Shown: positions 12,536-59,114, counted from the first letter of the stretch. The stretch: DNA of 64,000 nucleotides from an uncultured Gammaproteobacteria bacterium (GCA_964401485.1 CAYNYL010000006.1:4208-68207); one strand, 5' to 3'. The notes: generated by a model not told the origin, from the letters alone. Numbers and translations are program-made.

Positions 12536-12536
12536 A

Positions 12537-13079: not shown

Positions 13080-13080
13080 A

Positions 13081-14088
13081 CTAGTTGGCACCAAACTGGA
13101 GGTTGTACCACTGCCTGTAGGAAGAGCTTTGACGAATTGGCCTCCACCAAGATTCATTCTTACGATACCAATCAACCATGTGTGCAAGGCCCTGATCAAA
13201 CGTGAGCGTCGGCGCCCAAGCAAGCTCCGTCTTCATTCGCGAAAAATCAATCGCGTAGCGTCTATCCTGCCCCGGCCGGTCTTTAATAAACTGAACCATC
13301 TCCTCGGTAACGCCCATGACCTTGATAAGCCGAAGCGCCGTCTCTCGGATCGAAAGTTCCGCGTCCCCGCCCATAAGATACGTCTCTCCGATACGCCCGC
13401 GATCAATGACCGCCAAAATTCCAAGGGCATGGTCACGCACATGAATCCAGTCACGAACCTGTGTTCCGTCCCCGTGGATCTGGATCTTTTGTCCATCAAG
13501 GACATTTGTAATCGAAATCGATAAGAACTTTTCCGGGTAAAGGAATGGTCCGTAATTGTTTGTACAATTTGAAATCGTTGCTTGAAGATTGTGTGTGTGG
13601 ATTCCGGCACGAACAAGGTGGTCGGAGGCAGCCTTCGTCGCGCTGTAGGGATTGCGTGGAGCGTAAGGAGATGCCTCGCTAAACTTCGCATCCGTTGGTC
13701 GCAGTTCCCCAAACACTTCATCCGTCGACACGTGGTGAAGTCGTTTTCCGAATTTCACGCAGGCGTCTACGAGTCGTTGCGTTCCAAGTACATTTGTAAG
13801 GATGAACGGTTCATTATCAACGATTGAACGATCAACGTGCGTTTCCGCAGCAAAGTTCACAACGAGATCAACCTTTGAAACGAGATCTTCAACAAGTTGT
13901 TTATTCACGATCGATCCGTACACAAACCGATAGCGAGGATCAGTTTGAAGATCGAGCGTGTTACTTAAATTGCCCGCGTAAGCGAGTGCGTCAAGATTGA
14001 TCACGGTCCAGTCCGGCTTTTGTTCAAAAAGAACCCGAATAAAGTGTGAGCCGATGAATCCGCACCCTCCGGTAACAAGAACCTGCAT
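13081..14088 (-). CDS. rfbB: dTDP-glucose 4,6-dehydratase
   Basis: MQVLVTGGCGFIGSHF, YSATKAASD (YxxxK) and full-length RmlB similarity. Confidence 0.9.
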   Translation of the reverse strand: MQVLVTGGCGFIGSHFIRVLFEQKPDWTVINLDALAYAGNLSNTLDLQTDPRYRFVYGSIVNKQLVEDLVSKVDLVVNFAAETHVDRSIVDNEPFILTNVLGTQRLVDACVKFGKRLHHVSTDEVFGELRPTDAKFSEASPYAPRNPYSATKAASDHLVRAGIHTHNLQATISNCTNNYGPFLYPEKFLSISITNVLDGQKIQIHGDGTQVRDWIHVRDHALGILAVIDRGRIGETYLMGGDAELSIRETALRLIKVMGVTEEMVQFIKDRPGQDRRYAIDFSRMKTELAWAPTLTFDQGLAHMVDWYRKNESWWRPIRQSSSYRQWYNLQFGAN

Positions 14089-14114: not shown

Positions 14115-14519
14115 CTATTCGGTCAAGAGCCGAAGGACCTCGTCGAGCTCCTCCTTTGTTGGGGTTGTTTTAATAAAGGTTCGTGGCTGTCCGTCGTAGC
14201 GAGGCATGAAATGGAGGTGAGTGTGGAACACGTCTTGCCCTCCCGAGATTCCGTGGTTGAGACCGAGGTTGTAGCCAGTGGCACCAAGCGCCCTAAGGAC
14301 CTTCGGTGCGAGCCGGTGCGCGGTCGCCATAATCGCCTCAGCATCCTCGCTTGTGCCAAGACTCAAGGAGTCTGCGTGCACTTTCGGAATAATGAGGAAA
14401 TGCCCTCGCGTCACCGGCCCTATATCAAGAAAGGAAAATGTTTTTGAATCTTGATCGATAACACGGGAAGGAATCGTTCCGGAAATGATCTTGCAAAACA
14501 GACAGTCAGGATTTGTCAT
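14115..14519 (-). CDS. HIT-family (histidine triad) nucleotide hydrolase
   Basis: CLFCKII... and HTHLHFMP (HxHxHxx) motif. Confidence 0.8.
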   Translation of the reverse strand: MTNPDCLFCKIISGTIPSRVIDQDSKTFSFLDIGPVTRGHFLIIPKVHADSLSLGTSEDAEAIMATAHRLAPKVLRALGATGYNLGLNHGISGGQDVFHTHLHFMPRYDGQPRTFIKTTPTKEELDEVLRLLTE

Positions 14520-14721
14520 AATATAGGGTTACTAGAAATAGAATAAGACAAGGGAGGCAAAGAACGTAAAGAGGCATTACGAACGAAACGAAGCCCGGCC
14601 GAATCGCCTCAAGCGCAACAAAGAACGGGATCGAGAGAAAAGAGATGAGAAAAGCAAAACGTAGCATATTAGAGTCCGAATGGAAGGCGGTCGCGAAGCG
14701 CCTTAAGGAGCGCGCGTCCAC
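14506..14721 (-). CDS. Possible small membrane protein (53-71 aa)
   Basis: ORF with two hydrophobic helices in the HIT-to-14669 gene gap. No homology recognised; it may be non-coding. Confidence 0.25.
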   Translation of the reverse strand: MDARSLRRFATAFHSDSNMLRFAFLISFLSIPFFVALEAIRPGFVSFVMPLYVLCLPCLILFLVTLYYDKS

Positions 14722-16075
14722 GCAGTGGTGGCTTCGTAAAGGTCACTTCAATTTCTTGGACGCGAAAACTCTTGCCTTCGCGAGATACGGATGGCGACGA
14801 AAGTGCGAACGTAATGACGCCATTTGCATCAACGTATGGAGCGATCGCAAACGTCTGTTCGCCAATCACTCCGCCCTCGACTCGCTCCACCGATTGGTAA
14901 CTCGTAAGAATCGCGTCGACTTCGCGCGCCTCAAGATCGGCAAGTCCGCCGAGCCTCGTCCCTTCTGGATTGAAGAACTGATCCCGTGTAAATGCAATGA
15001 CGCCATCAACCGTTAGTCGCGCATCCCCCTTTGGAATCGTTACCGGAAGAACCCCCGTCTCGGTCGTCGAGAAATACACTTGCTCGCGCGGAGCGGAAAG
15101 CTCAAACGACTGATCTCCAACGCGAATCGTTTGCACCCCTTCAACGTGAAGTGTCTCCGCCGTTAGATCTTTTCCATTCGTAAACACGGTCTCACCATAC
15201 ACGTCGTCACTCCACCCAACCTGATCCCCAAACGATATCGCTTGAAGAAACACCCACTTTGTAAGCGTTGTGGTCCATTCTCGTAAGAAGAGATCGCTCG
15301 TCGTTGTCCATTCGATACGATACGGACCCTCCGGAAGATCCTCAATCCGAAGCGGGACCGCGATCCGTGAAAACGCTTGATCCTTCGAACGATTCCCATC
15401 ATCCGCCGTCACCCCTTCGTACACAACTTCGTCACGCTCATTGTAGACGCGAAACGTTAACGGATCCTCGCCGGTCGTACGATTCACATCCGTGAACGTA
15501 AACGTAACATCAAGCGGTTCATTTTTCACGTAAACGGCAACACGGTGTGAACCACGAAGTGACGTCTTTGTTGTACGCAATTCTCCGCTAGCTCGATATC
15601 CGGCAAGACGCAAAGGGACCGGGTTCTCGGCATGATAAAACGCGACTTCGGAGGCCGAGGAAATCGGGTCTCCGTCACGGGTAAAATACCGAAGTCCGTT
15701 CGCATAGACCTCCCTTGGCCAAGAAAGCTCCTCAAGGAGACGGTGATATAGCGGTCGCAAATCAAAAGCACGCGAAAACGGGTCGGCAAGCGGACCGATC
15801 TCAACGAGATCCGTTGTCATAGGGTCAAGCGCCACACGGACCGTCACAGTTTCATACTCCGAGCTCGGTGGCCGAACAGTGAAGTAAACCGGCTCACCAA
15901 TAACCTCAAATCCATTAAGCCGCTCTGTCGGCGAAAGGGCACTAACAAACGGAGATTGCTCACCCTCTTTAATTGAGGCAACCCGTTCACCGTCAATTTG
16001 AAGGTCAACCAAAAATAGTGCGACGAAGAGCGTCAACGGAATAGAAAGGATCGCTATTCGATAGCCAATCGTCAT
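14669..16075 (-). CDS. Hypothetical membrane-anchored extracytoplasmic protein (468 aa), co-operonic with the GT-C-like gene
   Basis: Single N-terminal TM (IAILSIPLTLFVALFLV) followed by a large soluble domain. Its start overlaps the upstream gene stop by 4 nt. Confidence 0.5.
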   Translation of the reverse strand: MTIGYRIAILSIPLTLFVALFLVDLQIDGERVASIKEGEQSPFVSALSPTERLNGFEVIGEPVYFTVRPPSSEYETVTVRVALDPMTTDLVEIGPLADPFSRAFDLRPLYHRLLEELSWPREVYANGLRYFTRDGDPISSASEVAFYHAENPVPLRLAGYRASGELRTTKTSLRGSHRVAVYVKNEPLDVTFTFTDVNRTTGEDPLTFRVYNERDEVVYEGVTADDGNRSKDQAFSRIAVPLRIEDLPEGPYRIEWTTTSDLFLREWTTTLTKWVFLQAISFGDQVGWSDDVYGETVFTNGKDLTAETLHVEGVQTIRVGDQSFELSAPREQVYFSTTETGVLPVTIPKGDARLTVDGVIAFTRDQFFNPEGTRLGGLADLEAREVDAILTSYQSVERVEGGVIGEQTFAIAPYVDANGVITFALSSPSVSREGKSFRVQEIEVTFTKPPLRGRALLKALRDRLPFGL

Positions 16076-17640
16076 AGTGAAGAAATACGATAAAGCGTTT
16101 CAGAACCAAACGATTCGATCGGCGAAATTGTAAGTCCAACGGGTCCAAGCCGCACCGTTTGAAGATACATAAGATCACGTTCGGGAAGCGTTACACCAAA
16201 ATAATACACTGGTCCAAGCCCCGCCATTTTTGGAAGCATGTAGTAGGTACGCTCACTACGAAGCGGGTGCACAACCCCTCGATCCGGATACAAATACTTG
16301 TCCGCATAGTCGGTAATGATCAATGCATTCTCCTCGGTAAGCGCAAGGATTTGCTCTTTATACTCGGCATTTTGAAGAAGAACCTCCCGCGTTTTAAGGA
16401 GCCCGTCATGCGACAAAAGAACGAGCCCTAGGTTCGCAAGAAGGAATGGCACAAGAAGAAGTCCAAGAATGAAGTCACGACGCTTCGAAATGACAAAGAA
16501 GGCGTGAGCAATAAAGGGAGTAGTAAGGACAAAGATCGGCAAAAAGTAGCGGATGTAGGAATTTCCAAGCGTAATAACCGAACGATCTGGATTATCGTAA
16601 AACACCCAACTCGCATAGACAAGAACTAGGTAGCCGGAAATCAACGCCGTAAGAAGAAGATAGGGTCTCGCGGGCTTCGGAAGCGCGATGATCCCGATAA
16701 ATACAAAAACCGCAATCCATGGGAATAGGACGACGAGATAGTTCGTCGCGTTACGTAGAATCGCACGTTCATGGATCCCAAACGGAAAGAGTACACCGAG
16801 AATTCCTGGATAGTCATCCTGTTTTACCGTTGGAAGAAACTCTGCCGATTCTTGAATCACAACCGCCGGCGTTTCATGCGCCTGGTAGCCCGTTTTAACG
16901 AGAGACCCGTACAGCTCTGCGTTCAGTCCAAGAAACGGCAGGCTCGCAAACAATCCGCCAAGAACAAAGACAAGAACCTGCGCACGAGACGCGAACGCCT
17001 TGAGAACCGCGTACAGCAAGAGCGCGAAAACGACAGGCGCAACCCAAACCACTTCATTCATCCGGAACGCCACAGCGAAGGCAAGAGCGACCCCCGCAAG
17101 CCCCATCTGCCAAACACTCTTTCGTCGCATCGCCTCAACCGCAAGAAAAAGAGCAAACAAAAGGAATGAGACAAAGGGAACATTGTGCATCAGTGCACGC
17201 CCCGAATAAAAGAGGAAGGCGGGATGGAGAAAAAGCAGGGCGCCCGAAAGGAGGGCAAACCGCTCATCATTTGTCGCGTAATACACAAGCCGTGCAAAAA
17301 CTAGAACAGCGAGCGCTCCAAACACCATCGTCAAATAAGGGATCACAAAGACCCCAACCGAAGCACCGATCGATCCGTAAAGCACAGGTAGTCCAATAAA
17401 ACTTTTTGGGACAACACGGCCCTCGAGGACAAGCGTACTTCGCGGACGTACAATTCCGTCAAGTTCTCCATTTCTCGCATCAGTAACCCCAATCTCCCCC
17501 TCCCTCGCAAACTGCTCAGCAAAGAGACGGTTCGCCGATTCATCGGGCGAATTTGAAACCCCAACCCCAACGACGAGGAGCGAAGAAATGACAAGATAGC
17601 AAAGTCCTGCCAGAATAAAGGTTGTCCAGTAAAATCGCAT
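16072..17640 (-). CDS. Polytopic membrane glycosyltransferase, GT-C fold (ArnT/PMT-like, polyprenyl-phosphate-sugar dependent)
   Basis: 522 aa with about 12 TM helices, an early extracytoplasmic loop carrying SPDESANR (DE-type motif), and adjacency to GT2 DPM1-like and GtrA-like genes. Confidence 0.55.
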   Translation of the reverse strand: MRFYWTTFILAGLCYLVISSLLVVGVGVSNSPDESANRLFAEQFAREGEIGVTDARNGELDGIVRPRSTLVLEGRVVPKSFIGLPVLYGSIGASVGVFVIPYLTMVFGALAVLVFARLVYYATNDERFALLSGALLFLHPAFLFYSGRALMHNVPFVSFLLFALFLAVEAMRRKSVWQMGLAGVALAFAVAFRMNEVVWVAPVVFALLLYAVLKAFASRAQVLVFVLGGLFASLPFLGLNAELYGSLVKTGYQAHETPAVVIQESAEFLPTVKQDDYPGILGVLFPFGIHERAILRNATNYLVVLFPWIAVFVFIGIIALPKPARPYLLLTALISGYLVLVYASWVFYDNPDRSVITLGNSYIRYFLPIFVLTTPFIAHAFFVISKRRDFILGLLLVPFLLANLGLVLLSHDGLLKTREVLLQNAEYKEQILALTEENALIITDYADKYLYPDRGVVHPLRSERTYYMLPKMAGLGPVYYFGVTLPERDLMYLQTVRLGPVGLTISPIESFGSETLYRISSL

Positions 17641-17643
17641 CTT

Positions 17644-19707
17644 TTGTCATGTTATACTAAAAAACGGTATTTTTCTATGCGCCTCCTCTCCCCCCTCTCT
17701 ACGACCCCATTTCTCCTCATTTTTGGGGTAGGAACGCTCCTAAACGGCCTTTTTTTGCGGTCCCCTGGGCTTGGGCTCATTTTTCTTATCGTTCTTGGTC
17801 TCGGAGCAGCAAAACGGCTCGGAAACCCCTTCGAGGGCGGGCTCATTCTTCTAAGTAGCATTATGCTCTTTTTTACGGGAGCATTCTACCTCGTCGACAT
17901 CCCCCGCCTTTTCTTTGCAGGAGCATTCCTCTTCTTCCTTTTTGGACTCATGCTTTTGCGACGCACAAGCGTCAAACGCGAATCGGAACGCGCCCCTCTT
18001 CTCTTTTATCCGCTCTGCCTCGCAACTGCCGTCCTCACCGCCCTCTTTTTCAATGCGGTCGCCCCTTTCGCAACGGAGCTTGCAACTCGCTCCCCTTGGC
18101 TCCTTCTCCCGCCATCAATCCTTCTTTATCCATTTTTCATCGGGATCCTTGCAACCATTACCGCCTTTGTCGCGGACGTGCGTCGAGGTGCGCTCCCGCT
18201 AATCCTTATTTCGGCGATCGGAACACTCCTCGCCTTCACCCTTTTCCCTCTCGGATACGGTTTTGACCCTTTCATTCACGAAGCAACGATTCGCCACATC
18301 CTTACCTTCGGAACGATTGATCCAAAACCGCTCTACTATATCGGACAGTACGCGCTCGAGCTTTTCCTTGTTCATCTTTTTGCGCTCGACCTTACGCTTC
18401 TCAACCAACTTCTCCTTCCGGTTCTCGCAATCCTCACCCTCCCGTTCGCGCTAAGCGCGGGGCTTCGCGGGGCTGGTGTAAAACAGGGGTTCGCTCTCCT
18501 TAGCCTCGTCGCCCTTCCATTCGGCGCGTTTATCATGACAACTCCGCAGGGGCTCGGCTATCTCTTTAGCGCCGTGATTTTATTTCTCACCCTTCCCGCT
18601 CTCGTCCGAGAACCACTCCCCGTACGACACGTAACGATCGCCCTCCTCGCGCTTGCGACACTCGCGATCCACCCGCTCGCCGGAATCCCAATCATTCTCT
18701 ATCTCGCACTCCTCTATACACGCACACGCATTCCACGCCTAAGCGCACTGATCGTTGTCGCTACTCCCCTTGCCCTTCCGCTCGTCTTCACTCTGCAAAG
18801 CGCTCTTTCGGGTAACGCAATCTCCATCCATTTGGACCGCATTCTCCCGTCGATTGCGTCCCTTCCTTTTGGATTTTTGACAACCCACTACGATCCGATT
18901 CTTGACCTACTCTATTTCTTTGGAGCGAATATTCTTCCGCTCCTGCTCCTCGTATCGCTTAGCCTTCTTTACACACTCCGCTCACACAAGGACCGCTCCC
19001 TTCTTCGAACCCCACTCCTCTTTGCTTTTCTTCTTTTCCTTTCCTCCCTCCTCCTTCGCGCCCTGTCGTTTGACTACCTCGCCGAACATGAACGTAACGA
19101 CTTTGCGGAGCGACTTTACGTCTTAATGACTCTGTTCCTTCTTCCGTCGCTCGCCGTTCTCTTTGATTCGATCCGCACCCGAATTCGCGGCCCTCTCCAT
19201 CTCACCGTCTTTACGCTCTTTGTTGCCACGCTGTTCACCGGAAACCTTTACCAAAGCTACCCTCGTCACGACGGGTATGCCCGCTCCGGTGGCTTTACGA
19301 TTTCGGCCTACGACCTCCTAACTGTGAGTGCGATTGAAGAAGATGCAAATGGCGCCCCCTACCTTGTCCTCGCAAACCAAGCCGTTTCCGCTGTAGCGCT
19401 TCGCGAATTTGGATTTAACAACCGCTACTACAACAACTCTTTCTTCTACCCGATTCCAACGGGAGGAAAACTCTACGAGCGCTACCTTGCAATGAATGAA
19501 TCTCCAACAAAAGAGAACGCAAAAAGCGCGATGGATCTTCTTTCGATCGACCGCGCCTACTTTGTCGTGAATGACTACTGGTGGGACAAGGAGCGTATTG
19601 TTGAGCAAGCAAAACTCGAATCAGATAGCTGGTTCGCAATCGGTGACGAACACCTATTTGTGTTTCTCTTTACGCGCGAGGAGGATTCGCTCGAATCGGT
19701 CCGTTAA
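17644..19707 (+). CDS. Large polytopic membrane protein (687 aa), putative second GT-C family glycosyltransferase or oligosaccharyltransferase-like
   Basis: More than 12 N-terminal TM helices plus a ~200-aa C-terminal soluble domain. It diverges from the 16072-17640 gene with a 3-bp gap, and its 3' end overlaps the convergent GT4 gene by 54 bp. Confidence 0.5.
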   Translation: MSCYTKKRYFSMRLLSPLSTTPFLLIFGVGTLLNGLFLRSPGLGLIFLIVLGLGAAKRLGNPFEGGLILLSSIMLFFTGAFYLVDIPRLFFAGAFLFFLFGLMLLRRTSVKRESERAPLLFYPLCLATAVLTALFFNAVAPFATELATRSPWLLLPPSILLYPFFIGILATITAFVADVRRGALPLILISAIGTLLAFTLFPLGYGFDPFIHEATIRHILTFGTIDPKPLYYIGQYALELFLVHLFALDLTLLNQLLLPVLAILTLPFALSAGLRGAGVKQGFALLSLVALPFGAFIMTTPQGLGYLFSAVILFLTLPALVREPLPVRHVTIALLALATLAIHPLAGIPIILYLALLYTRTRIPRLSALIVVATPLALPLVFTLQSALSGNAISIHLDRILPSIASLPFGFLTTHYDPILDLLYFFGANILPLLLLVSLSLLYTLRSHKDRSLLRTPLLFAFLLFLSSLLLRALSFDYLAEHERNDFAERLYVLMTLFLLPSLAVLFDSIRTRIRGPLHLTVFTLFVATLFTGNLYQSYPRHDGYARSGGFTISAYDLLTVSAIEEDANGAPYLVLANQAVSAVALREFGFNNRYYNNSFFYPIPTGGKLYERYLAMNESPTKENAKSAMDLLSIDRAYFVVNDYWWDKERIVEQAKLESDSWFAIGDEHLFVFLFTREEDSLESVR

Positions 19708-20871
19708 CCGCGACACGTAGTTCGAGAGTCCGTAATCGGATACCGTTGATTTAATCACCTCTTGCGATTGATAGTACAAATCGCGCTTCTCCATTACGTT
19801 TCTTACCGCTCGGCAATAATCCGCCAAATTCCCCGGTTCAAACATTACGCCGTTTTTTGGCTCCTGTATTAGTTCTCCAACTCCGCCAATATCCGCAGCA
19901 ACAACCGGAACCCCAGCCTGTAAACTTTCGTAAATTACCGTCGGGGAATTTTCATAGCAAAGCGACGGGACAACAAGCGCGTCCGCGATACCAAAGCAAC
20001 TTATGAGTTGGTCGATCGCGATATACCCGAGGTACGTAATCCGCTTATCCGCCTTTGCGGCCGCCGAAACCTCAGCGGAAAGCGTTCCTTCTCCCGCGAT
20101 AATAAGCTCCACTTCCGGCGGAAGCTCCTTCATCGCTTCAAGAAGAAGTCGAATCCCTTTGTGATACTCGAGCTGCCCAACAAAGAGAAGACGGAAATGT
20201 CCCTCTGGCTTTCCGGTACGAAGCACTGCCTGAAACTCCGGCGCTGGATTTGGAAGCACCTCTACTTTTGAATGTTTAAAAAATCCGTGCTTAAGATATT
20301 CATCCTTAAGAAATTGTGAGGGGAAAATAACAAGGTCTGGTTGGCCAAGAAGCATCCGACACACAAATCGATAGACGCCATATACAGGCGCGAAGATGCG
20401 TGGCTTCTTCTCTTCTCCTGCAAAGAGGAGCCCGGACGGATAGATGAGTTGGAGGTCATGCACGACGTGAACATGGGCGAGGCGCAGTTTTCGAATCGCT
20501 CCCGGAATTCGAAGACCGATACCTTTGAGATTATGTGTCACAACTACATCTGGCTGTTCGCCAGAAAGAATTTCTTCTACGCGCCTTGCCGGATAAGGAG
20601 AAAACGCGTCTATGATATGCCAAAGCAACCGCTTCAGGACGGGTTGCTTATAGTCATCAAGCAAATAGTAGAGATTTTTTGGATAGAATCGATAGACTGG
20701 TTCGGCATTTCGAGACGTTTCAATTGCATCATTCGCGGTTTTTCGGCGCGTTGAAATAACAAACGCGTCATGACCTCGTTCGCTCAATCCCTCAACCGTC
20801 CGTACAACAACGTGCTCGGCGCCACCTCGGACATAGGGAGGATAAAGATTCGATATAAAGCCAATCTTCAT
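19654..20871 (-). CDS. Glycosyltransferase family 4 (GT-B fold). Likely start MKIGFISN at 20871.
   Basis: N-terminal YPPYVRGGAEHVV and C-terminal E-x7-E-like region (PSLCYENSPTVIYESLQAGVPVVAADIGG). Confidence 0.8.
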   Translation of the reverse strand: MKIGFISNLYPPYVRGGAEHVVVRTVEGLSERGHDAFVISTRRKTANDAIETSRNAEPVYRFYPKNLYYLLDDYKQPVLKRLLWHIIDAFSPYPARRVEEILSGEQPDVVVTHNLKGIGLRIPGAIRKLRLAHVHVVHDLQLIYPSGLLFAGEEKKPRIFAPVYGVYRFVCRMLLGQPDLVIFPSQFLKDEYLKHGFFKHSKVEVLPNPAPEFQAVLRTGKPEGHFRLLFVGQLEYHKGIRLLLEAMKELPPEVELIIAGEGTLSAEVSAAAKADKRITYLGYIAIDQLISCFGIADALVVPSLCYENSPTVIYESLQAGVPVVAADIGGVGELIQEPKNGVMFEPGNLADYCRAVRNVMEKRDLYYQSQEVIKSTVSDYGLSNYVSRLTDRFERILLARKEKHK

Positions 20872-21917
20872 ATAACCTCGTTGTAACATGATTCTAGCCG
20901 ATCGAACAGCACGGCCGGCGCATAGCGCTCGCGAGCTCTCACCGAAGCATTTCGGCCAAGGAGCGCAAGGCGATCGGGGCTTGCGAGGACCTCGTTAAGA
21001 AGAACGGCGAGCCGATCCGCATCCGAAGGCGGGGTAATAAACCCGGTAACACCGTGTTCAACGACCGTTCGCACTCCCGGGAGATCCGAAACAATCGAGG
21101 GCGTCCCGCTAAGCGCAGACTCAACCGTCACAATACCGAATGCTTCCGCCTTTGTCGTCGATGGAAGAAGGTGCACCCAGGCTCGCCGATAGGCTTTCGC
21201 TTTATCTTCGTCGGACAGCGCGCCGAGAAAACGAACGCGATCTTGAAGCCCGAGACGCTTCGCCAACGTCTCAAACACCCCTCGCAAATTTCCGTCCCCA
21301 ACAAGTTCAAGAACAACCCCAGGGGTTGAAACATGGACCAGGGCACGAAGGAGAATCGGAATCCCTTTAAAATAATGTGCGCTATCCATTCCCCCGACAA
21401 ATAACAGTGTTGGTTGGCTCGCACGTTCAAGCGCATTTGGAAAAAAGAGATGTTCATCCGCTCCAAACGGAAGCTCAATAACGGACGGGTGCACCACCCC
21501 TTGTGCCGAAAGATAATCCGCACTACTTACAAACAACCGTTTTGCGGTGCGCAAAATTGGCCCCTCGCCAAGAATCCGACTAAGCCAAAAAATCCATCCC
21601 TTTATTCCAGTCCCGGTCGCGCGCATGTGAAACGTTGCAACAAGCGGGATTTTGAATAGTCGACAAGCAATCGCTGTAAACACCTGTGCCCCGTAAAACG
21701 GATAGTGAAGATGAACAAGGTCAAATGACCGCAATCGCCAAAGGAGACTAAAAAATAGTCGCGCGTTTCCAAAACGAAGCGCCACCCGATCGCTTCCCGA
21801 ATGAAAAACAACAACTTCGTGCCCACGGGCGCGTAGTGCCTCCGTGTAATCCTTTGCGACCTGACCAATTCCTCCTCGCTCCGGCGGATAGACGCAAACA
21901 ACCTGTGCGATTCTCAT
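20868..21917 (-). CDS. Glycosyltransferase family 1/4 (GT-B fold). Likely start MRIAQVV at 21917.
   Basis: VYPPERGGIGQVAKDY N-terminal motif; C-terminal LLPSTTKAEAFGIVTVESALSGTPSIVSDLPG. Confidence 0.8.
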   Translation of the reverse strand: MRIAQVVCVYPPERGGIGQVAKDYTEALRARGHEVVVFHSGSDRVALRFGNARLFFSLLWRLRSFDLVHLHYPFYGAQVFTAIACRLFKIPLVATFHMRATGTGIKGWIFWLSRILGEGPILRTAKRLFVSSADYLSAQGVVHPSVIELPFGADEHLFFPNALERASQPTLLFVGGMDSAHYFKGIPILLRALVHVSTPGVVLELVGDGNLRGVFETLAKRLGLQDRVRFLGALSDEDKAKAYRRAWVHLLPSTTKAEAFGIVTVESALSGTPSIVSDLPGVRTVVEHGVTGFITPPSDADRLAVLLNEVLASPDRLALLGRNASVRARERYAPAVLFDRLESCYNEVI

Positions 21918-21918
21918 A

Positions 21919-22995
21919 CTACCAACGAACAACGAATTGAATCCCCTTTGTTAAAAGCGTAAGTACTGGGTTCGCGAACCGTTCAACGATAAAACTCGAT
22001 TGCTCCTGCGCCTCGATGCGCCCCGAAAAAAGCGCGACAAGTTCGCGATCCGAAATCACACGAAGGCGCTTTGTGCGGGTGCGAATGGAAAAAATCAGCC
22101 GGTACGTACGAAGCCGAAGCCACTCACGCCAAGCCCAACGCTTCGCCGAAAACCACCCACCTTTTATCGCAAGAAGAGTCGTCGCCCCCTCGACCGCAAC
22201 CAAGATCGGTAAAACAAGAAGGAGCGTCAGGGGCTTCAAATATCCAAACAATACAACGTGGCGATAGAGCTCCATCCAAGCAAATTTTTTCGGGTTGCGC
22301 GTAAAGGCGTAGTCGTGGAGCGCCAGCGCCTTTGACGCGAGAACGTTACGATACCCCGCGATACGAAATCGGAGTCCCCACTCAAGGTCTTCGTGATACA
22401 TGAAGAACCGATCCTCGAGTAGACCCACCTCCTTAATCACGGAGGTCTTTACAAGAAGGGCCGCACCCGTCGCATACGTTACGTCCTCTACCTCTTCAAA
22501 CACTCTCTGCGAACGCTTCGTCCCATTATCACGCGCATACCCAAAACCAGCGATATGAACGATTCCCCCGCTCACGTTAATCACCTCAGGCGATTTCATA
22601 TGTAGTACGAGCGGTTGAACGCTCGCGATCTTCTCGTCCCCTTCCGCAACCGCCACCATTCGCTCAATCGTTTCAGGTTCTAAAACGAGGTCTCCGTTGT
22701 GAAGAAGAATGTACTCATACCCTCGCTCAATCGCCCAAGTGATCGCTAAATTATTCCCTCCCGAAAATCCGTGATTCTTTCCATCATCAAGAAGCACCAC
22801 TTCCGGTAAATCCTTCTTCGAGCGCGGAAGAAATTCCGTTTGAACGATCTCGCTCGCGTTTCCCGTCGATCCATTTGGAATACAAACAAATGTCAGAGCC
22901 TCTTTCGGGTAAGTTTGCGAAGCGATCCCATCCGCAACCATCCGCATGTACTCCTCGGCCCCATAACAAAGATAGAGGATGGCAACGCGCTTCAT
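21919..22995 (-). CDS. Glycosyltransferase family 2. Likely start MKRVAILY at 22995.
   Basis: VAILYLCYGAE...LLDDGKNHGFSGGNN and a DxD-like HNGDLVLEP motif; GT-A fold. Confidence 0.75.
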   Translation of the reverse strand: MKRVAILYLCYGAEEYMRMVADGIASQTYPKEALTFVCIPNGSTGNASEIVQTEFLPRSKKDLPEVVLLDDGKNHGFSGGNNLAITWAIERGYEYILLHNGDLVLEPETIERMVAVAEGDEKIASVQPLVLHMKSPEVINVSGGIVHIAGFGYARDNGTKRSQRVFEEVEDVTYATGAALLVKTSVIKEVGLLEDRFFMYHEDLEWGLRFRIAGYRNVLASKALALHDYAFTRNPKKFAWMELYRHVVLFGYLKPLTLLLVLPILVAVEGATTLLAIKGGWFSAKRWAWREWLRLRTYRLIFSIRTRTKRLRVISDRELVALFSGRIEAQEQSSFIVERFANPVLTLLTKGIQFVVRW

Positions 22996-22996
22996 A

Positions 22997-23329
22997 TTAT
23001 TCTGGACGCTTAGCATCACGAATTGCGATCTCGCGCGTTAAATTCGTAATCTCTTTTCGGAGACTCTCTTGCTTCACCATGATTCGATAATTTACGTAAA
23101 ACAACAAGACGAGCGCGAGGTAGACAAGGAGATCCGCTCCCCGTCCAACTCCAACAAATTTTGCAACAATATCCGTCGATTCCGGTGTAATCGCAACGGC
23201 AATGACAAGAAGCCAGCCGATGCTCCAAATCGTCATCCACCACTTGCTTACCCGCTCTGCACGGAATTGGCGATAACTATGAAAAAGCGCAAAGACTGCA
23301 AACGTAACAAGAAGAATTTGAAAAATCAT
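22997..23329 (-). CDS. DUF2304/GtrA-like small membrane protein, commonly paired with polyprenyl-phosphate glycosyltransferases
   Basis: 110 aa with three or four TM helices followed by a short basic cytoplasmic tail. It is sandwiched between the two GT2 genes with 4-nt overlaps. Confidence 0.55.
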   Translation of the reverse strand: MIFQILLVTFAVFALFHSYRQFRAERVSKWWMTIWSIGWLLVIAVAITPESTDIVAKFVGVGRGADLLVYLALVLLFYVNYRIMVKQESLRKEITNLTREIAIRDAKRPE

Positions 23330-24009
23330 AGTTCATCAAAAAATTTATCATGGAAAAAATCCGCAAGGATCTTAAAGCCACCCATGAATGACTGTCCTTT
23401 TTTTAGCGTCTCGTCGGTATATCGGATCGTCACCGGTCGCTCAACGTACCTCAAGCGTCCAACAACAATCTCGTCGAGGATTTCGGACGCATGAGCCATT
23501 CGGTCGAGCGTGATACGCAACTTTTCCGCCGTCTTTCTTGAGAGCGCGCGAAACCCGTTGTGCGTATCGGTAAGTCGAATCCCAGAAATCAACATCGTAA
23601 AAAGAAGGGCCGGCTTAAGGGTTAACCACTTACGAATAAATGGCATCGACGTTCCTCCGCGAAGAAAGCGAGAACCGAGCACAATATCCGCCTCTCCCTT
23701 CGCGATCGGATCCACAAGTCGCGCAATCTCGTCACCCCGCATCTGCCCATCCGCGTCAAAATGAACGATAATATCCGCGTCGAGGTGCCGAAGCGCATAG
23801 TCGGTCGCCGTTTGAAGCGCCGCCCCCTGACCTCGGTTGATCGGATGACGAAGAACGATCGCCCCCGTCGAAAGTGCAACGTCACCCGTTTCGTCAGACG
23901 AGCAATCGTCAACAACGACAACAAAATCGACAAATGCCTTTGCATCCAAAATCGCCTCCCGAACCCTTGTCCCCTCATTATACGCGGGAATGACAGCAAC
24001 GATTTTCAT
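23326..24009 (-). CDS. GT2 polyprenyl-phosphate sugar synthase (DPM1/GtrB/ArnC-like)
   Basis: MKIVAVIPAYNEGTRVREAI...VVVVDDCSSDET...HFDADGQ (DAD motif). Confidence 0.85.
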   Translation of the reverse strand: MKIVAVIPAYNEGTRVREAILDAKAFVDFVVVVDDCSSDETGDVALSTGAIVLRHPINRGQGAALQTATDYALRHLDADIIVHFDADGQMRGDEIARLVDPIAKGEADIVLGSRFLRGGTSMPFIRKWLTLKPALLFTMLISGIRLTDTHNGFRALSRKTAEKLRITLDRMAHASEILDEIVVGRLRYVERPVTIRYTDETLKKGQSFMGGFKILADFFHDKFFDEL

Positions 24010-24023
24010 AGAAAAACCGTAGC

Positions 24024-25025
24024 TTATTTCGGCTCCGTGGTCAATAATAGCTTGTTCGCACGGATATAATCGATCGTCTTCTTAAGCCCGTCATCCATCT
24101 TTATAAGCGGGGTCCAAGAAAGCGTCTCGCGCGCCTTCGAAATGTCGGCAACCCCCGTCTCGGGCGAAAACATCGGTTCCTCTTGGTAGCTGATCGTTGA
24201 GCTCGACTCCGTAAGCGCTACAATACGCTCGGCGAGCGCGCCAAGCGTCACCGGCGTATCCGATCCAAAGTTTACTGCCGAAGCGACACCATCCTCGCGC
24301 ATAAGCCGAATAAGCCCATTGATTAGGTCCGTAACATAGAGAAGCGAGGTCGTCGCGTCCTTCGAGCCCTTTACAATCACCGGTTCGTTACTTAACGCTT
24401 GAAGAATCATGTCTGGAATTTGGTGACCGTCAAAGACCGGCATACGGGGACCAAACGTACGGAAGATTCGAGCGATCGGCGCAACGATTCCGTAAAGATC
24501 CGCATAGGTTGCAAACATCGTTTCGGCAAACCGCTTCCCCTCGTCGTAACTCGCCCTCGCCGAGAGATGGTCAACAATCCCAAGATCATCTTCACGCAAA
24601 CGCCCATCGCCGTCTCCGTACACAACGGAACTCGAGCAAAGAAGAATCCGTGACTGATACTTCACCGCAACCTCAAGGAGATGATGCGTTCCGATAGAAT
24701 GAGATAGGAGCGACTCAAGACGGTGGTCCGGAAAATGCTCGATCGAGACGGGGGACGCGACGTGATAGATCTCCTGGATTCCATTATGTGCGATCTGAAA
24801 AGATTCAAGTTCAGGCTGTGTTTCTAGATCGAAGGGACGGTTAATATCCAACCGGAGAAACTGAAAATTCGGTTGACGAAGGAACGGATCAATATTGCGG
24901 ACATGTCCCGTTGTAAAATCATCAAGACAAATAACGCGATTCCCTTCGCGAAGGAGTGCCTCACAAAGGAATGACCCGATAAACCCCGCTCCACCGGCAA
25001 CGAGAACGATTTTTGATTGCTCCAT
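24024..25025 (-). CDS. NAD-dependent sugar-nucleotide epimerase/dehydratase, UDP-glucuronate decarboxylase (UXS)-like
   Basis: VLVAGGAGFIGSFLCEALLREGNRVICLDDFTTGHVRNI and YDEGKRFAE (YxxxK). Confidence 0.85.
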   Translation of the reverse strand: MEQSKIVLVAGGAGFIGSFLCEALLREGNRVICLDDFTTGHVRNIDPFLRQPNFQFLRLDINRPFDLETQPELESFQIAHNGIQEIYHVASPVSIEHFPDHRLESLLSHSIGTHHLLEVAVKYQSRILLCSSSVVYGDGDGRLREDDLGIVDHLSARASYDEGKRFAETMFATYADLYGIVAPIARIFRTFGPRMPVFDGHQIPDMILQALSNEPVIVKGSKDATTSLLYVTDLINGLIRLMREDGVASAVNFGSDTPVTLGALAERIVALTESSSTISYQEEPMFSPETGVADISKARETLSWTPLIKMDDGLKKTIDYIRANKLLLTTEPK

Positions 25026-25026
25026 A

Positions 25027-26562
25027 TTACTTAGCTAATGAAGTTCGTTTTTTCATAATGCTTTTATCGACCGCGATAGGGGACTCGATAACCGCGCCTT
25101 CTCCAAACTTTGAAAAGTGCGTCGGCTCGACGTCGATCACGTAGTCCGCCCAGTCCGAGCCATACATTGCGATCGCCACTTCCTCCGTCTTAATGTGCCG
25201 TAAGTAAGGCCGATACGGGTTTTCCGGATTCTGCATCACGGCGAAGACCGCCGGCACCGATTGAATCTTTACGAGCACAACACCATATTTTGGAAGCGCG
25301 ATTCCTCCAAGATCGATCGCTCCAAGTTCCGCATCGGTTACAACTTCGACCGGGGAAAAGTCATCTTCCCACGTAAAGTAACTCTGACTGTTGATAAAAA
25401 TGTAACGCTTTCCCTTTACGACTGCGTAGACAGCGCTTGATCCGGCCGTGCGAATATAACGAGCGTCTTCCCCCGCCTCCTCCGGCGTCACAAATGATTC
25501 GCCTGCGGTCAACGCCTTTGCGACATTAAGTCGCCCCGCACCAAGATGCGCTTTCTCGGGTTCGGTATCCGGAATTGCATCAACGCCAGCCTCAAGCGCA
25601 AGGCGAACTCCGGTCGGAGTCAGATTCGGATACTTCGCGAGAAGAAGTGCCGAGGCGCCAACAACCATCGGGGCGGCAACCGATGTTCCCTGCCAACCAT
25701 TGTCGTAGAAATCATCATATCCGTTCACCGCGTCTTGGTATGAAAGTCCAAAAATCGACACTCCCGGCGCAACAAGATCCGTGCACTCCGATCCATAATT
25801 TGAAAAATCTGCTCGTTCGTCGCGACGATCACTCGCCCCAACCCCGATAACGTAATCATCCTCCCCGCTTCGCAAACAGACCGGATAGACCGTTTTATCA
25901 TTCGCGTTCACATTCGCATTCCCCATCGCCGCCACTATCACAACGCCGCTATGAAATGCATACGCGATCGCATCATTCAAAATATCATCCGACTCGTATC
26001 CCGAGAAACTTAAATTGATAATATCCGCGCCATTTGCAACCGCGTAGTAAATCGCATTCGCGACATCGGTCGAAGAGCCGGCTCCCGCACTATTTAGTCC
26101 GCGAAGCGACATAAGCCTCACCCTCCAGGCGATACCCGATGTCCCAACACTATTATTCCCGAGTGCCCCAACAATCCCCGCAACCATCGTCCCGTGCGTC
26201 ATAGCGATCGGATCGAGCTCATCTTCGGTAACGTCTGGTGTTGGATCATTATCATCTGAAACGAAATCCCACCCATTACGGTCGTCGATAAATCCGTTTT
26301 GATCATTATCGATTCCATCGATCGGATCATCGTTCACCCAAATATTTCCCGCAAGATCCGGGTGGTCAAGATCAATTCCGCTATCGATAATCGCAACAAC
26401 TACGCTCGACGCGTCTGTTTGCGTATCCCAAGCGTCAAAAGCGCCAATCTGCTCCAAATACCACTGATCCGATACGTTCGGATCATTCGATTCGCGCGCT
26501 AAAACCGGAGCACTAATCGCAAACTGACCAAGCAACAAAAGAGACGCGACGAATTGCTTCAT
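25027..26562 (-). CDS. Secreted subtilisin-like serine peptidase (S8) with a C-terminal ~130-aa conserved domain shared with two neighbouring proteins
   Basis: Signal peptide MKQFVASLLLLGQFAISAPVLA. Catalytic triad motifs VAIIDSGIDLDHPDL (D), HGTMVAGIVGA (H) and GTSVAAPMVVGASALL (S). C-terminal domain SSAVYAVVKGKRYIF...VLVKIQSVPAVFAV...DWADYVIDVEP...MKKRTSLAK. Confidence 0.85.
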   Translation of the reverse strand: MKQFVASLLLLGQFAISAPVLARESNDPNVSDQWYLEQIGAFDAWDTQTDASSVVVAIIDSGIDLDHPDLAGNIWVNDDPIDGIDNDQNGFIDDRNGWDFVSDDNDPTPDVTEDELDPIAMTHGTMVAGIVGALGNNSVGTSGIAWRVRLMSLRGLNSAGAGSSTDVANAIYYAVANGADIINLSFSGYESDDILNDAIAYAFHSGVVIVAAMGNANVNANDKTVYPVCLRSGEDDYVIGVGASDRRDERADFSNYGSECTDLVAPGVSIFGLSYQDAVNGYDDFYDNGWQGTSVAAPMVVGASALLLAKYPNLTPTGVRLALEAGVDAIPDTEPEKAHLGAGRLNVAKALTAGESFVTPEEAGEDARYIRTAGSSAVYAVVKGKRYIFINSQSYFTWEDDFSPVEVVTDAELGAIDLGGIALPKYGVVLVKIQSVPAVFAVMQNPENPYRPYLRHIKTEEVAIAMYGSDWADYVIDVEPTHFSKFGEGAVIESPIAVDKSIMKKRTSLAK

Positions 26563-26583
26563 ACGCGCCCATTGTATCACGGT

Positions 26584-27273: not shown

Positions 27274-27300
27274 ATAGGCGCATCCTACCACGGCGAGCTA

Positions 27301-27336: not shown

Positions 27337-27351
27337 TTGTTTGCTGTATTT

Positions 27352-34467: not shown

Positions 34468-34468
34468 A

Positions 34469-59113: not shown

Positions 59114-59114
59114 T

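Follow-up and report, generated by a model that had tools for sequence, protein, structure and literature searches.

The window, a 64,000-nucleotide stretch of DNA from an uncultured, ultra-small, Uhrbacteria-like bacterium of the Patescibacteria/CPR, contains a real, strongly conserved gene cluster. Nine genes, rather than the eleven counted in a preliminary description, lie within 14669-25025, encoding proteins of 468 aa, 522 aa, 687 aa, 411 aa (GT4), 354 aa (GT4), 366 aa (GT2), 110 aa (DUF2304), 227 aa (GT2) and 333 aa (SDR). The ORFs listed in that description were all found in place, and every one of them has homologues, indicating that they are real genes. The cluster runs past these limits, with genes for a TPR protein and an S8 protease upstream and for a HIT protein and RmlBCD downstream; sugar- or envelope-related assignments were obtained for 12 of the 15 genes from rmlD to the TPR gene. 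Families and homologues were searched in Pfam, NCBIfam and the PDB, and two of the cluster's protein families (687 aa and 468 aa) have no current database name.

When likely internal ATG starts are used, the junctions measure -4, +1, +1, -4, +14, +1, +3 and -4 nt, those from the TPR gene to the GT4 genes ranging from -4 to +14 nt; with these starts, the earlier statement that nearly all junctions are of 1-4 nt is true. A terminator-like hairpin (27311-27337, minus strand; an 11-bp stem followed by a T-run) lies between the gene of a Big_5 surface protein and the TPR gene, and probably marks the upstream end of the transcription unit. Of 21 consensus hits, a total not above shuffle expectation, none is stronger than this one, and a promoter scan showed no enrichment.

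The tightly packed unit opens with the gene of the TPR protein (235 aa; 26584-27291, minus strand; Pfam TPR_14 and others), whose one hydrophobic segment, residues 11-29, forms an N-terminal TM anchor. After 3 nt follows the gene of a secreted, mycosin-like S8 subtilase (517 aa; 25027-26580, minus strand; Peptidase_S8, E = 1.7e-48), which scores 167.6 bits against the mycosin model, under its cutoff of 278.75, and 1 nt separates this gene from the SDR gene. At the opposite end lie a HinT-like HIT protein (134 aa; 14115-14519, minus strand; PF01230, E = 1e-19; HinT model, 86 bits) and the minus-strand genes rmlB (13081-14088; GDP_Man_Dehyd/Epimerase, E = 3e-65), rmlC (12537-13079; dTDP_sugar_isom, E = 1e-58) and rmlD (11672-12535; RmlD_sub_bind, E = 4e-77). 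Together, rmlBCD (11672-14088) cover steps 2 to 4 of the dTDP-rhamnose pathway, with 1-nt junctions at internal ATG starts; as previously described for rfbBCD without rfbA, no RmlA-like gene occurs within the window. The neighbouring large secreted proteins, a Big_5 protein of 549 aa and a protein of 1411 aa, carry a signal or anchor at the N terminus, and Ser+Thr make up 22.6-22.7% of their residues.

The SDR (333 aa; 24024-25025, minus strand) matches human UXS1 with 216 bits (E = 6e-63) over residues 4-323, compared to 93 bits for the next PDB match, and the two proteins have the YDEGKR catalytic stretch in common. This match bears out the proposed UXS-like decarboxylase/epimerase and makes the SDR a probable UDP-glucuronate decarboxylase; UDP-glucose dehydrogenase was not found within the window. 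The adjacent GT2_227 (227 aa; 23326-24009, minus strand; PF00535, E = 2.8e-23) has DAD motifs at 77 and 85 and no TM segments. Its nearest NCBIfam model is PpgS, a polyprenyl-P-HexNAc synthase (194 bits over residues 5-219 of 227, under the cutoff of 370), and it scores 54 bits against the dolichol-P-mannose synthase DPMS (PDB 5mlz). Consistent with its earlier designation as DPM1/GtrB-like, its sequence most likely places it with GacI, WpsA and PpgS among the polyprenyl-phosphate sugar synthases; at a score under the PpgS cutoff, this likeness would not fix its sugar specificity.

The GT2_227 gene overlaps by 4 nt the gene of a 110-aa protein (22997-23329, minus strand; PF10066, E = 7e-24) with three hydrophobic segments. 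Of its former DUF2304/GtrA-like label, the DUF2304 part stands; identity as a GtrA flippase is ruled out, the family being PF10066 rather than PF04138. By its family it is a predicted activator partner of the GacJ/WpsB/Rv3632 type, and the roles of GacJ and WpsB are documented (10.1101/180810; PMC10821137). Since the small membrane protein is activator-type DUF2304 and not GtrA, the cluster is left without a recognisable flippase, and none was recognised elsewhere in the window.

Three further glycosyltransferases are encoded between this module and the membrane transferases. The 366-aa ORF reaches to 23019, with a product of about 358 aa (21919-22995, minus strand; Glyco_tranf_2_3, E = 1.4e-9); it has no PDB match and scores 44.8 bits against the TIGR01556 rhamnosyltransferase model (cutoff 200), a likeness that weakly suggests a rhamnosyltransferase-like GT2. 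The 354-aa ORF reaches to 21932, with a product of about 349 aa (GT4_354; 20868-21917, minus strand; Glycos_transf_1, E = 2e-30) whose top PDB match is PimA (2gej/4n9w; 81 bits, E = 1e-21, residues 32-332), followed by a match of 64 bits. The 411-aa ORF reaches to 20889, its product on record having 405 aa (19654-20871, minus strand; Glycos_transf_1, E = 5.5e-29) and weak PDB matches. These two had been called one GT1 and one GT4; the GT4 assignment holds and the GT1 assignment does not, as both contain Glycos_transf_1 and Glyco_transf_4 and are of the CAZy-GT4 type.

The 522-aa protein (GTC522; 16072-17640, minus strand) is a GT-C of the PMT/PMT_2 (GT39/GT83-like) type. Its Pfam matches are marginal: PF02366 (PMT) exceeds its gathering cutoff (25.1 versus 22.7 bits), in support of the ArnT/PMT-like assignment made before, and PF13231 falls under its own (24.5 versus 26.1 bits), although 11 of 40 homologues match it. 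P32-D33-E34 is invariant immediately past TM1, and the invariant Asp-Glu in loop 1 is what we take to be the PMT-type motif. By 4 nt, the GTC522 gene overlaps that of b468 (468 aa; 14669-16075, minus strand), which had been described as a membrane-anchored exoprotein and indeed combines an N-terminal TM anchor with several jelly-roll/sandwich domains that together form an all-beta ectodomain (AF2 pLDDT 90.7). Its family has 1440 representatives; we found no Pfam match and only generic beta-sandwich matches in Foldseek (TM <0.2), with no informative structural neighbour. We propose that b468 is an acceptor-binding partner of GTC522.

The 687-aa protein (M687; 17677-19707, plus strand; 676 aa, or 687 aa from a TTG at 17644) is polytopic with a C-terminal alpha/beta domain, and has no match in Pfam or NCBIfam; neither its family nor that of GTC522 has a PDB sequence match. 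We compared its AF2 model (pLDDT 91.8, pTM 0.93) with known folds. The Foldseek E-values are weak (best 3.9e-3), and the only meaningful TM-score matches (0.28-0.43) are GT-C enzymes: AglB is top by E-value (probability 0.99), ArnT has TM-scores of 0.36/0.43 and EmbA/B of 0.28. In hhalign, the M687 profile aligned to the GTC522 family at 92.4% (E = 5e-7, score 65.9), compared to at most 7% for shuffled controls; reversed alignments scored 30-32, and none of 20 block-shuffles exceeded 33.7. D197, H201, K217 and R479 are invariant in the family. The model and profile comparisons identify M687, previously without annotation, as a member of an unnamed family with a predicted, divergent GT-C fold. 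The alternative of a transporter is rejected by TM-scores of at most 0.13 for transporter folds and by the profile homology to the PMT_2 family, so that the earlier placement of both large membrane proteins among GT-Cs is favoured. The M687 gene is convergent to the minus-strand GT4 gene of 411 aa, as described before, overlapping its 3' end by 54 nt, and head-to-head with the GTC522 gene, the starts 3-36 nt apart, an arrangement kept in other genomes.

Members of the M687 family occur in at least 527 species-level genomes, and in 83 loci (at least 83 species-level genomes), all from a single lineage of Uhrbacteria and relatives, gene order and strand are kept at about 35% (30-40%) protein identity. 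The same order and strand were found for GTC522 in 66/67 loci (head-to-head), b468 in 60/63, the GT4s in 52-53/63, RmlB in 51/59, DUF2304 in 47/57, HIT in 47/61, GT2_227 in 46/56, the SDR in 45/55, the rhamnosyltransferase-like GT2 in 41/58, S8 in 37/50 and TPR in 23/49; the 1411-aa family occurs in 18 loci, and the S41, NUDIX and HIT housekeeping genes are syntenic too. The GT-C/M687 pair survives where all other neighbours differ, and in distant genomes it occurs alone or with two GT4s (as in locus L087), in both cases without GT2/DUF2304. Consequently, the two modules are separable, and they might serve different products. In 73 of the 83 loci, a PgsA-like CDP-alcohol phosphatidyltransferase gene, not found in the window, lies between GTC522 and M687.

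Taken together, the genes probably form a transmembrane glycosylation pathway of many components that serves a cell-surface glycoconjugate and resembles GacI/J/L or the lactococcal Wps system. [quoted passage not shown] What was observed are the families and folds of the proteins, the operon-like packing of their genes and the deep synteny; from these we infer catalytic steps, sugars, a role for b468 and an acceptor. The SDR would decarboxylate UDP-glucuronate to a UDP-sugar, possibly a UDP-pentose. With its 3-TM partner keeping it at the membrane and raising its activity, GT2_227 would load a sugar from its UDP form onto polyprenyl monophosphate at the cytoplasmic side, as in GacI/GacJ, WpsA/WpsB and PpgS/Rv3632. 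Genes for a phosphoglycosyltransferase, an ABC or Wzx transporter, Wzy or LCP were found neither in the window nor in loci L001, L004 and L088; GT2_227/DUF2304 would therefore be the cluster's sole lipid-loading enzyme. The rhamnosyltransferase-like GT2 and the two GT4s may use dTDP-rhamnose from RmlBCD, and these three cytoplasmic enzymes would either lengthen the lipid-linked sugar to a short oligosaccharide, as WpsC-F do, or make the acceptor. A flippase would move the lipid-linked donor outward, where GTC522, probably with the translationally coupled b468 as acceptor-binding subunit, and M687 would pass the sugar(s) to the final acceptor and/or build a polymer on it. By a rough estimate, no single acceptor is more likely than not: a wall or secreted glycopolymer ranks somewhat ahead of a lipid-anchored glycan and a Ser/Thr-rich surface protein, which rank equal. 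The lipid-anchored glycan is an acceptor class new to this analysis, suggested by the PimA-like GT4 and the PgsA-like gene of 73/83 loci.

Two other mechanisms would account for parts of the same evidence. If Ser/Thr residues in the large neighbours (Big_5 and 1411 aa) received sugar from a polyprenyl-P donor through the PMT-like GT-C and/or M687, the latter as an oligosaccharyltransferase, with TPR and S8 recognising and processing the substrate, then the Pfam PMT match and loop 1 Asp-Glu of GTC522, the AglB match of M687, the packing and synteny of TPR and S8, and the Ser/Thr-rich composition of the two anchored proteins would be explained. Protein O-glycosylation is nevertheless unlikely: GT2_227 is PpgS/GacI-like and not a Ppm1/DPM1-type mannose synthase, M687 has neither an STT3 Pfam match nor a WWDYG-type motif at the expected position, distant genomes have the GT-C/M687 pair with no S8, TPR or large protein near it, and the rml genes with three cytoplasmic transferases imply a glycan more complex than PMT-type single sugars. 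We consider equally doubtful a PIM/lipomannan-like product, in which PimA-like GT4s glycosylate a membrane phospholipid or glycolipid from the cytoplasmic side and, after flipping, two GT-Cs elongate it from polyprenyl-P-sugar to a lipoglycan. The near full-length PimA match, the PgsA-like gene of related loci, the GT4s kept without GT2/DUF2304 in L087, and the lack of a phosphoglycosyltransferase or LCP ligase agree with it, and HIT and NUDIX in the gene run loosely recall the mycobacterial operon Rv2613c-pgsA-Rv2611c-pimA-Rv2609c (PMC3229680). However, the PgsA-like gene is missing from the window and its product is far nearer to housekeeping PgsA (76-85 bits) than to PI-phosphate synthase (28-35 bits), the GT4 family is so wide that 81 bits to PimA does not fix the acceptor, the HIT protein resembles HinT and not Rv2613c, and no acyltransferase is present.

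An inherited gene order in a small, streamlined genome, joining unrelated processes and with M687 a transporter or other membrane protein, would fit the single-lineage synteny set, the equally syntenic S41, NUDIX and HIT genes, the promoter scan and the weak Foldseek significance of M687. It is very improbable when set against order and strand kept across so many species at such low identity, the retention of the GT-C/M687 pair among wholly different neighbours, the 1-4-nt junctions, the predominance of sugar- and envelope-related assignments, and the GT-C fold and PMT_2 profile homology of M687, which exceeds all controls.

The transmembrane pathway proposed here is most likely a variant of known lipid-linked glycosylation systems. 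Like the S. pyogenes GacI/GacJ/GacK/GacL system (GlcNAc side chain of the group A carbohydrate), it combines a TM-less GT2 and an adjoining 3-TM DUF2304 activator with a GT-C outside the membrane, dTDP-rhamnose genes and more cytoplasmic transferases (10.1101/180810). Unlike Gac, it lacks a Wzx (GacK) flippase, an ABC transporter (GacDE) and a GacH-type enzyme, and it has a second GT-C and, as a partner of its own, a beta-sandwich protein. It also belongs to a CPR host, and its upstream UXS-like SDR suggests another sugar. The Lactococcus WpsA/WpsB pellicle (PSP) system has the same order of GT2, DUF2304 and a run of cytoplasmic transferases; that run begins, in L. cremoris NZ9000, with an enzyme that transfers rhamnose to GlcNAc-P-C55 (PMC10821137), and the gene after DUF2304 is rhamnosyltransferase-like here. 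Further likenesses are the oligosaccharide on polyprenyl monophosphate and more than one GT-C outside the membrane (WpsH/I/J) (PMC10821137), whereas the Wzx flippase (WpsG) and rhamnan backbone machinery are absent from our cluster, and PMT/PMT_2 are the only named families to which a sequence relation of its GT-Cs was detected.

In M. tuberculosis PpgS (Rv3631)/Rv3632/Rv3779, which places GalN on arabinogalactan, the synthase is the best NCBIfam match of GT2_227 and a GT-C makes the final transfer; M. tuberculosis also encodes an SDR sugar-nucleotide enzyme nearby. GT2_227 differs in scoring under the equivalog cutoff (194 versus 370), and our locus has a UXS-like SDR in place of an epimerase. 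The DUF2304 partner Rv3632 stimulates its synthase, according to the citation in 10.1101/180810. The likeness to mycobacterial PIM/LM/LAM synthesis (PgsA1, PimA, PimB', Ppm1, GT-C mannosyl- and arabinosyltransferases) goes no deeper than the superfamily: shared are a PimA-like GT4, a polyprenyl-P-sugar synthase, several GT-Cs, HIT and NUDIX neighbours and, in most related loci, a CDP-alcohol phosphatidyltransferase (PMC3229680), against a phosphatidyltransferase that is PgsA-like rather than PI-phosphate-synthase-like and absent from the window, and no acyltransferase. The ArnA/ArnC/ArnE-F/ArnT pathway has the same progression, in which a UDP-GlcA decarboxylase-type SDR is followed by a GT2 that loads polyprenyl-P and then by a GT-C of the PMT_2 family, and the 'PDE' motif past TM1 of GTC522 aligns, not significantly, with 'QPDET' of E. 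coli ArnT. Compared to Arn, the locus lacks ArnB aminotransferase, formyltransferase, ArnD and ArnE/F, it scores 45 bits with the ArnA model (cutoff 777) and 26 bits with the ArnC model (cutoff 529), and CPR bacteria are without lipid A (PMC5220378).

The interval 14669-25025, which the preliminary description had presented as an eleven-gene envelope glycosylation locus, holds nine genes, and every ORF that it had named is present in the window. From upstream to downstream, the minus strand carries a 333-aa UXS-like protein (SDR, 24024-25025), a 227-aa GT2 (GT2_227, 23326-24009), a 110-aa DUF2304 membrane protein (22997-23329), a 366-aa GT2 (GT2_366, 21919-23019) and two GT4 enzymes of 354 aa (GT4_354, 20868-21932) and 411 aa (GT4_411, 19654-20889). 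Next come the 687-aa polytopic protein M687 on the plus strand (17644-19707; the database version has an ATG start at 17677 and 676 aa) and, again on the minus strand, the 522-aa GT-C protein GTC522 (16072-17640) and the 468-aa protein b468 (14669-16075). Two family assignments change: the small protein described as DUF2304/GtrA-like is a DUF2304 protein (PF10066) and not of the GtrA flippase family, and the supposed GT1 disappears, as the last two transferases both belong to GT4.

When the most likely internal ATG codons are taken as starts, gene junctions lie between -4 and +14 nt, and therefore the earlier remark on tight packing holds. GT2_227, DUF2304, GT2_366, GT4_354 and GT4_411 follow in order at junctions of -4, +1, +1 and -4 nt, M687 converges on GT4_411 with a 54-nt overlap, and M687 and GTC522 stand head-to-head with starts 3-36 nt apart. 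The packed unit exceeds the interval first described, continuing upstream, across a 1-nt gap, with an S8 subtilase and then, across a 3-nt gap, with a TPR protein anchored by a TM segment. Its probable upstream end is a terminator-like hairpin at 27311-27337, the single convincing one in a promoter and terminator scan that gave no enrichment compared to shuffles. HIT, RmlB, RmlC and RmlD genes stand downstream of b468, and no RmlA-like gene lies within the window, in agreement with the reported absence of rfbA.

When one genome per species was scanned, at least 527 genomes proved to encode a relative of M687. Across 83 fetched loci, gene order and strand are kept at protein identities of about 30-40%, the typical order being (S41) RmlD RmlC RmlB HIT b468 GTC522 / M687 / GT4 GT4 GT2 DUF2304 GT2 SDR S8 TPR large-protein. 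Counted over the loci with enough flank for each gene, synteny was found for GTC522 (66/67 loci), b468 (60/63), the two GT4 genes (53/63 and 52/63), RmlB (51/59), HIT (47/61), DUF2304 (47/57), GT2_227 (46/56), SDR (45/55), GT2_366 (41/58), S8 (37/50) and TPR (23/49). The named homologues belong without exception to Candidatus Uhrbacteria, Patescibacteria or Parcubacteria. The title 'uncultured Gammaproteobacteria bacterium' stands on many MAG records with a Patescibacteria-type locus (L005, L008, L011, L012 and others), almost certainly as a placeholder or by mistake.

De novo ORF clustering of the related loci identified three extra components that are absent from the window. In 73 of the 83 loci (for example, L001 9363-9983, L004 9383-9970 and L088 7414-7980), GTC522 and M687 are separated by a CDP-alcohol phosphatidyltransferase of ~203 aa, which the window and a few close relatives lack; it is PgsA-like (76-85 bits, cutoff 109) as opposed to a PI-phosphate synthase (28-35 bits). 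An RmlA-like nucleotidyltransferase is present in 27 loci. Between HIT and b468, 51 loci encode a hydrophobic protein of 127 aa (125-141; L001 5924-6301, L088 4273-4656), which has no Pfam or NCBIfam match, probably forms four TM helices and is a candidate flippase. Searching the window by tblastn with the PgsA-like, small-TM and RmlA-like genes returned none of them.

In distant genomes the conserved set becomes smaller. One locus (L087) keeps the GTC522/M687 pair with two GT4s, while in L002 and L086 the head-to-head pair stands alone amid housekeeping genes, near BacA and YceG. The conserved set thus shrinks to the pair, and therefore GTC522 and M687 form the core from which the other modules are separable. 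Genes for dCTP deaminase, DHFR, ThyA, Tmk, GatB and MiaA directly flank the pair in L002 and L086; in the window they are found at 56133-63682, about 40 kb away from the cluster, and this placement looks like the remnant of an older gene order.

For M687 and 47 relatives alike, searches of Pfam, NCBIfam and PDB sequences returned no match. The AlphaFold2 model of M687, built from a 48-sequence alignment (pLDDT 91.8, pTM 0.93), contains some 14-16 TM helices, with a C-terminal alpha/beta domain spanning residues ~540-670. In a Foldseek search of the PDB, AglB ranked first (E 3.9e-3, probability 0.99; TM-scores 0.28/0.24), and GT-C enzymes were the sole matches with meaningful TM-scores, including ArnT (0.36/0.43) and EmbA/B (0.28). 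Transporter homology, which the preliminary description had named as the finding that would count against the large membrane proteins being GT-C enzymes, came out negative for M687; a transporter identity was rejected, with transporter folds reaching at most 0.13 compared to 0.28-0.43 for GT-C folds. Profile-profile alignment by hhalign linked the M687 family (A1) to the GTC522 family (A4) over 323 columns (92.4%, E 5e-7, score 65.9). Scores were 30-32 for reversed alignments and reached 33.7 at most in 20 block-shuffles, and these controls reject a compositional match.

The homology between M687 and GTC522 is limited to the TM core, and no relation was detectable between their N-terminal parts or C-terminal domains. 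The N-terminal ~200 residues of M687 form about seven extra helices unrelated to GTC522. Invariant residues gather in the acidic loop that follows helix seven (G195-F196-D197, H201, P216-K217 and Y220-Y221) and at R479 and Y528-P529-R530. Based on its predicted structure and the profile alignment, we conclude that M687 is a divergent GT-C. Membership in the oligosaccharyltransferase (OST) family STT3/PglB/AglB was rejected: PF02516 matches 0 of 48 members, the likeness to AglB is at the level of the fold only, and the conserved Y634-W635 stands close to the end of the protein rather than behind the last TM helix, at the start of the C-terminal domain, where a WWDYG-type motif was looked for.

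GTC522 narrowly passes the Pfam PMT gathering score (PF02366, 25.1 versus 22.7) and falls just under the PMT_2 cutoff (24.5 versus 26.1), and PF13231 is found in 11 of 40 homologues. P32-D33-E34, directly after TM1, is invariant in an alignment of 39 homologues, and we take this site to be the catalytic acidic motif position of PMT/ArnT-type GT-C enzymes. GTC522 therefore has both a PMT/GT39 model score, if marginally, and an acidic Asp-Glu motif in its first extracytoplasmic loop. The 'QPDET' stretch of Escherichia coli ArnT aligns with P32-D33-E34 in a non-significant alignment; as a single sequence, this ArnT reached P 0.067 against A4 and P 0.087 against A1 in hhalign, neither significant. 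Sequence and profile searches of PDB sequences with GTC522, A4 and A1 returned nothing meaningful.

The b468 gene overlaps the GTC522 gene by 4 nt, and the two occur together in 60 of 63 loci. Its product begins with a TM helix, and the ectodomain behind it is all-beta, made up of several jelly-roll or sandwich domains (pLDDT 90.7). Foldseek gave generic multi-jelly-roll matches alone (birnavirus VP2, PorU and EngBF; TM <0.2), and we therefore draw no function from them. A Pfam scan of 47 family members found no consistent family, and an exhaustive profile search collected 1440 representatives at 50% identity, nearly all 470-520 aa long. Rismondo and Gründling have speculated that small GT-C enzymes may depend on a partner protein for binding the acceptor polymer (PMC8035078). 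b468 is a candidate acceptor-binding protein of this kind for GTC522.

SDR aligns with the human UDP-glucuronate decarboxylase UXS1 over residues 4-323 (216 bits, E 6e-63; next family 93 bits) and shares its YDEGKR catalytic stretch (Tyr-x3-Lys); as an extended SDR nearest to a characterised UXS, it is best called UXS-like. GT2_227 (PF00535, E 2.8e-23) has DAD motifs and no hydrophobic or TM segment. Among NCBIfam models it scores best with that of the polyprenyl-phospho-N-acetylgalactosaminyl synthase PpgS (194 bits along its entire length, short of the equivalog cutoff of 370), and its sole PDB relative is a dolichol-P-mannose synthase (DPMS 5mlz, 54 bits). Its sequence fits a cytoplasmic, TM-less GT-A enzyme of family GT2 with a predicted activity of making polyprenyl-P-sugar. 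GT2_366 bears a weak likeness to rhamnosyltransferases (TIGR01556, 44.8 bits), and GT4_354 finds its best PDB match, nearly full-length, in PimA (81 bits, E 1e-21).

The DUF2304 protein (PF10066, E 7e-24) has three hydrophobic segments in 110 aa, and its gene overlaps that of GT2_227 by 4 nt. GacJ, WpsB and Rv3632 belong to the same family; they bind their cognate GT2s, enzymes that load polyprenyl monophosphate with GlcNAc or GalNAc, and strongly stimulate them (10.1101/180810; PMC10821137). An identity as GtrA flippase was rejected, considering the different Pfam family and the activator role given by the literature.

Taken together, the locus probably encodes a multi-component transmembrane glycosylation pathway. 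The UXS-like enzyme would supply a UDP-sugar, from which GT2_227 with DUF2304 would make a polyprenyl-P-sugar. GT2_366 and the two GT4s, with dTDP-rhamnose, would then extend the lipid-linked sugar or else build the acceptor. After flipping by a further protein, GTC522 (with b468) and M687 would act extracytoplasmically, transferring or polymerising the sugar(s) outside the membrane. Extension would mirror the lactococcal WpsC-F enzymes, which act on GlcNAc-P-C55 and, in strain NZ9000, add rhamnose as the first sugar (PMC10821137). We mildly prefer such a Wps-like oligosaccharide on a monophosphate carrier to a Gac-like single-sugar decoration, because the widely conserved cluster has no other lipid-loading enzyme or exporter; phosphoglycosyltransferase (PGT), Wzx/ABC exporter, Wzy and LCP ligase genes were found neither in the window nor in the annotated relatives L001, L004 and L088. 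We infer the identity of the sugar, the lipid carrier, the topology of the C-terminal domain, co-expression and the acceptor.

Three classes of acceptor can be considered for this pathway. A wall or secreted polymer containing rhamnose is a tentative possibility. A lipid-anchored glycan, which we hold to be somewhat less likely, would agree with the PimA-like GT4_354, the PgsA-like neighbour in related loci and the L087 arrangement of the pair with two GT4s, and the mycobacterial pgsA-pimA operon is loosely similar (PMC3229680). About as likely as the lipid-anchored glycan is glycosylation of the neighbouring secreted proteins, which are 22.6-22.7% Ser+Thr; the PMT-like motif of GTC522, the AglB-like fold match of M687 and the TPR and S8 genes in the same operon-like unit point to it. 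As to the partners of PMT-type systems, a Ppm1/DPM1-type polyprenyl-P-mannose synthase and Ser/Thr protein acceptors, GT2_227 scores 54 bits against DPMS 5mlz versus 194 against PpgS, and the Ser/Thr-rich secreted neighbours would be potential acceptors.

A bolder and unlikely reading is that M687, GTC522 and b468, joined in most relatives by the PgsA-like gene, constitute an undescribed, CPR-specific envelope-assembly module with three new parts. M687 would represent a new GT-C family, set apart by some seven additional TM helices at the N-terminus and by a novel C-terminal domain; b468 would be the first case of a small GT-C with its acceptor-binding subunit as a separate protein, so far only speculated (PMC8035078); and the lipid-linked donor would be a polyprenyl-phosphate pentose from the UXS-like enzyme. 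Its product would then form the main coat, lipoglycan or glycoprotein, on the surface of these ultra-small cells.

Several other features of the window were recorded. Upstream of the hairpin lie a 549-aa Big_5 protein (27352-29001, minus) and a 1411-aa protein without a Pfam match (29064-33299, minus), both starting with a signal or anchor segment and containing about 22.7% Ser+Thr. In 18 loci, a member of the 1411-aa family stands in synteny with the glycosylation cluster. The genes directly upstream of the two (33421-34999, minus) encode an ECF sigma factor and a DUF5667 protein, likely a sigma/anti-sigma pair. The plus strand at 35415-36602 encodes a 395-aa protein that matches the MATCAP (microtubule-associated tyrosine carboxypeptidase) Pfam family (E 2e-25), an annotation unusual for a bacterium. 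Two large Asp/Gly-rich secreted proteins (37534-40992 and 41182-43806, both minus) carry 14 and 10 Cu-binding_MopE repeats, with GC up to 0.60-0.67 in this stretch and a 1164-aa antisense shadow ORF (37456-40950, plus) opposite the first gene; in L001, a MopE-repeat protein fills the position after TPR. A single 548-aa ORF (5190-6836, plus) combines LexA DNA-binding, Peptidase_S24 and C-5 cytosine DNA methylase domains and adjoins a 361-aa ORF without a Pfam match (6841-7926, minus) in a GC-poor patch (0.40 versus about 0.50). These two may form a restriction-modification unit whose methylase is self-cleaving and regulated in the manner of LexA.

Envelope biogenesis in CPR/Patescibacteria is an acknowledged, uncharacterised gap (PMC5220378), and surface chemistry is central to CPR biology because the organisms depend on other cells or live attached to them. 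The locus provides a concrete, testable gene set kept in hundreds of species-level genomes, and gives a probable fold and role to two widespread, unnamed families of 'hypothetical proteins', M687 (at least 527 species-level genomes) and b468 (1440 representatives). It would extend lipid-monophosphate glycosylation of the GacI/J-WpsA/B type beyond Firmicutes and Actinobacteria, and offers a candidate for a split GT-C with an acceptor-binding subunit. What is new here is the CPR setting, the second, highly divergent GT-C family and the stand-alone beta-sandwich partner, together with a protease (S8) and a TPR protein within one unit. A limited literature search on CPR glycosylation loci or polyprenyl-P-xylose donors returned nothing relevant.

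Compared to known systems, the locus departs from each in at least one tested feature, because it has no recognisable flippase, its scores lie under equivalog cutoffs and the hallmarks of Arn, OST and PIM are missing. The Arn (aminoarabinose) pathway was rejected, with 44.8 bits to the ArnA model (cutoff 777), 25.7 to ArnC (cutoff 529) and no aminotransferase, deformylase or ArnE/F found. A PIM/LM-type lipoglycan pathway was likewise rejected: GT4_354 is PimA-like (81 bits), the CDP-alcohol transferase is PgsA-like and absent from the window, and there is no acyltransferase. As in lactococcal PSP-type systems, WpsA/WpsB homologues are followed by cytoplasmic GTs in one operon-like run with conserved order, where elongation would be analogous; a Wzx flippase and the rhamnan backbone machinery (Rgp GTs, ABC transporter) were not found in the window, L001, L004 or L088. 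Judged by the features of GacI/J/K/L-type systems (PMC8035078, Fig. 2b), the flippase (GtrA- or Wzx-type) is lacking in the window, with GtrA, Polysacc_synt, MurJ and ABC2 matching no cluster or window ORF. GT2_227 stands for the TM-less cytoplasmic GT2 with predicted polyprenyl-P-sugar synthase activity, the DUF2304 protein is the adjacent small 3-TM partner, and the polytopic GT-C-fold transferase is represented by GTC522 (PMT) and by M687 (AlphaFold2, Foldseek and hhalign). The locus would work like GacI/J/K/L, WpsA/B-J and PpgS/Rv3632/Rv3779, and more loosely like the Arn pathway.
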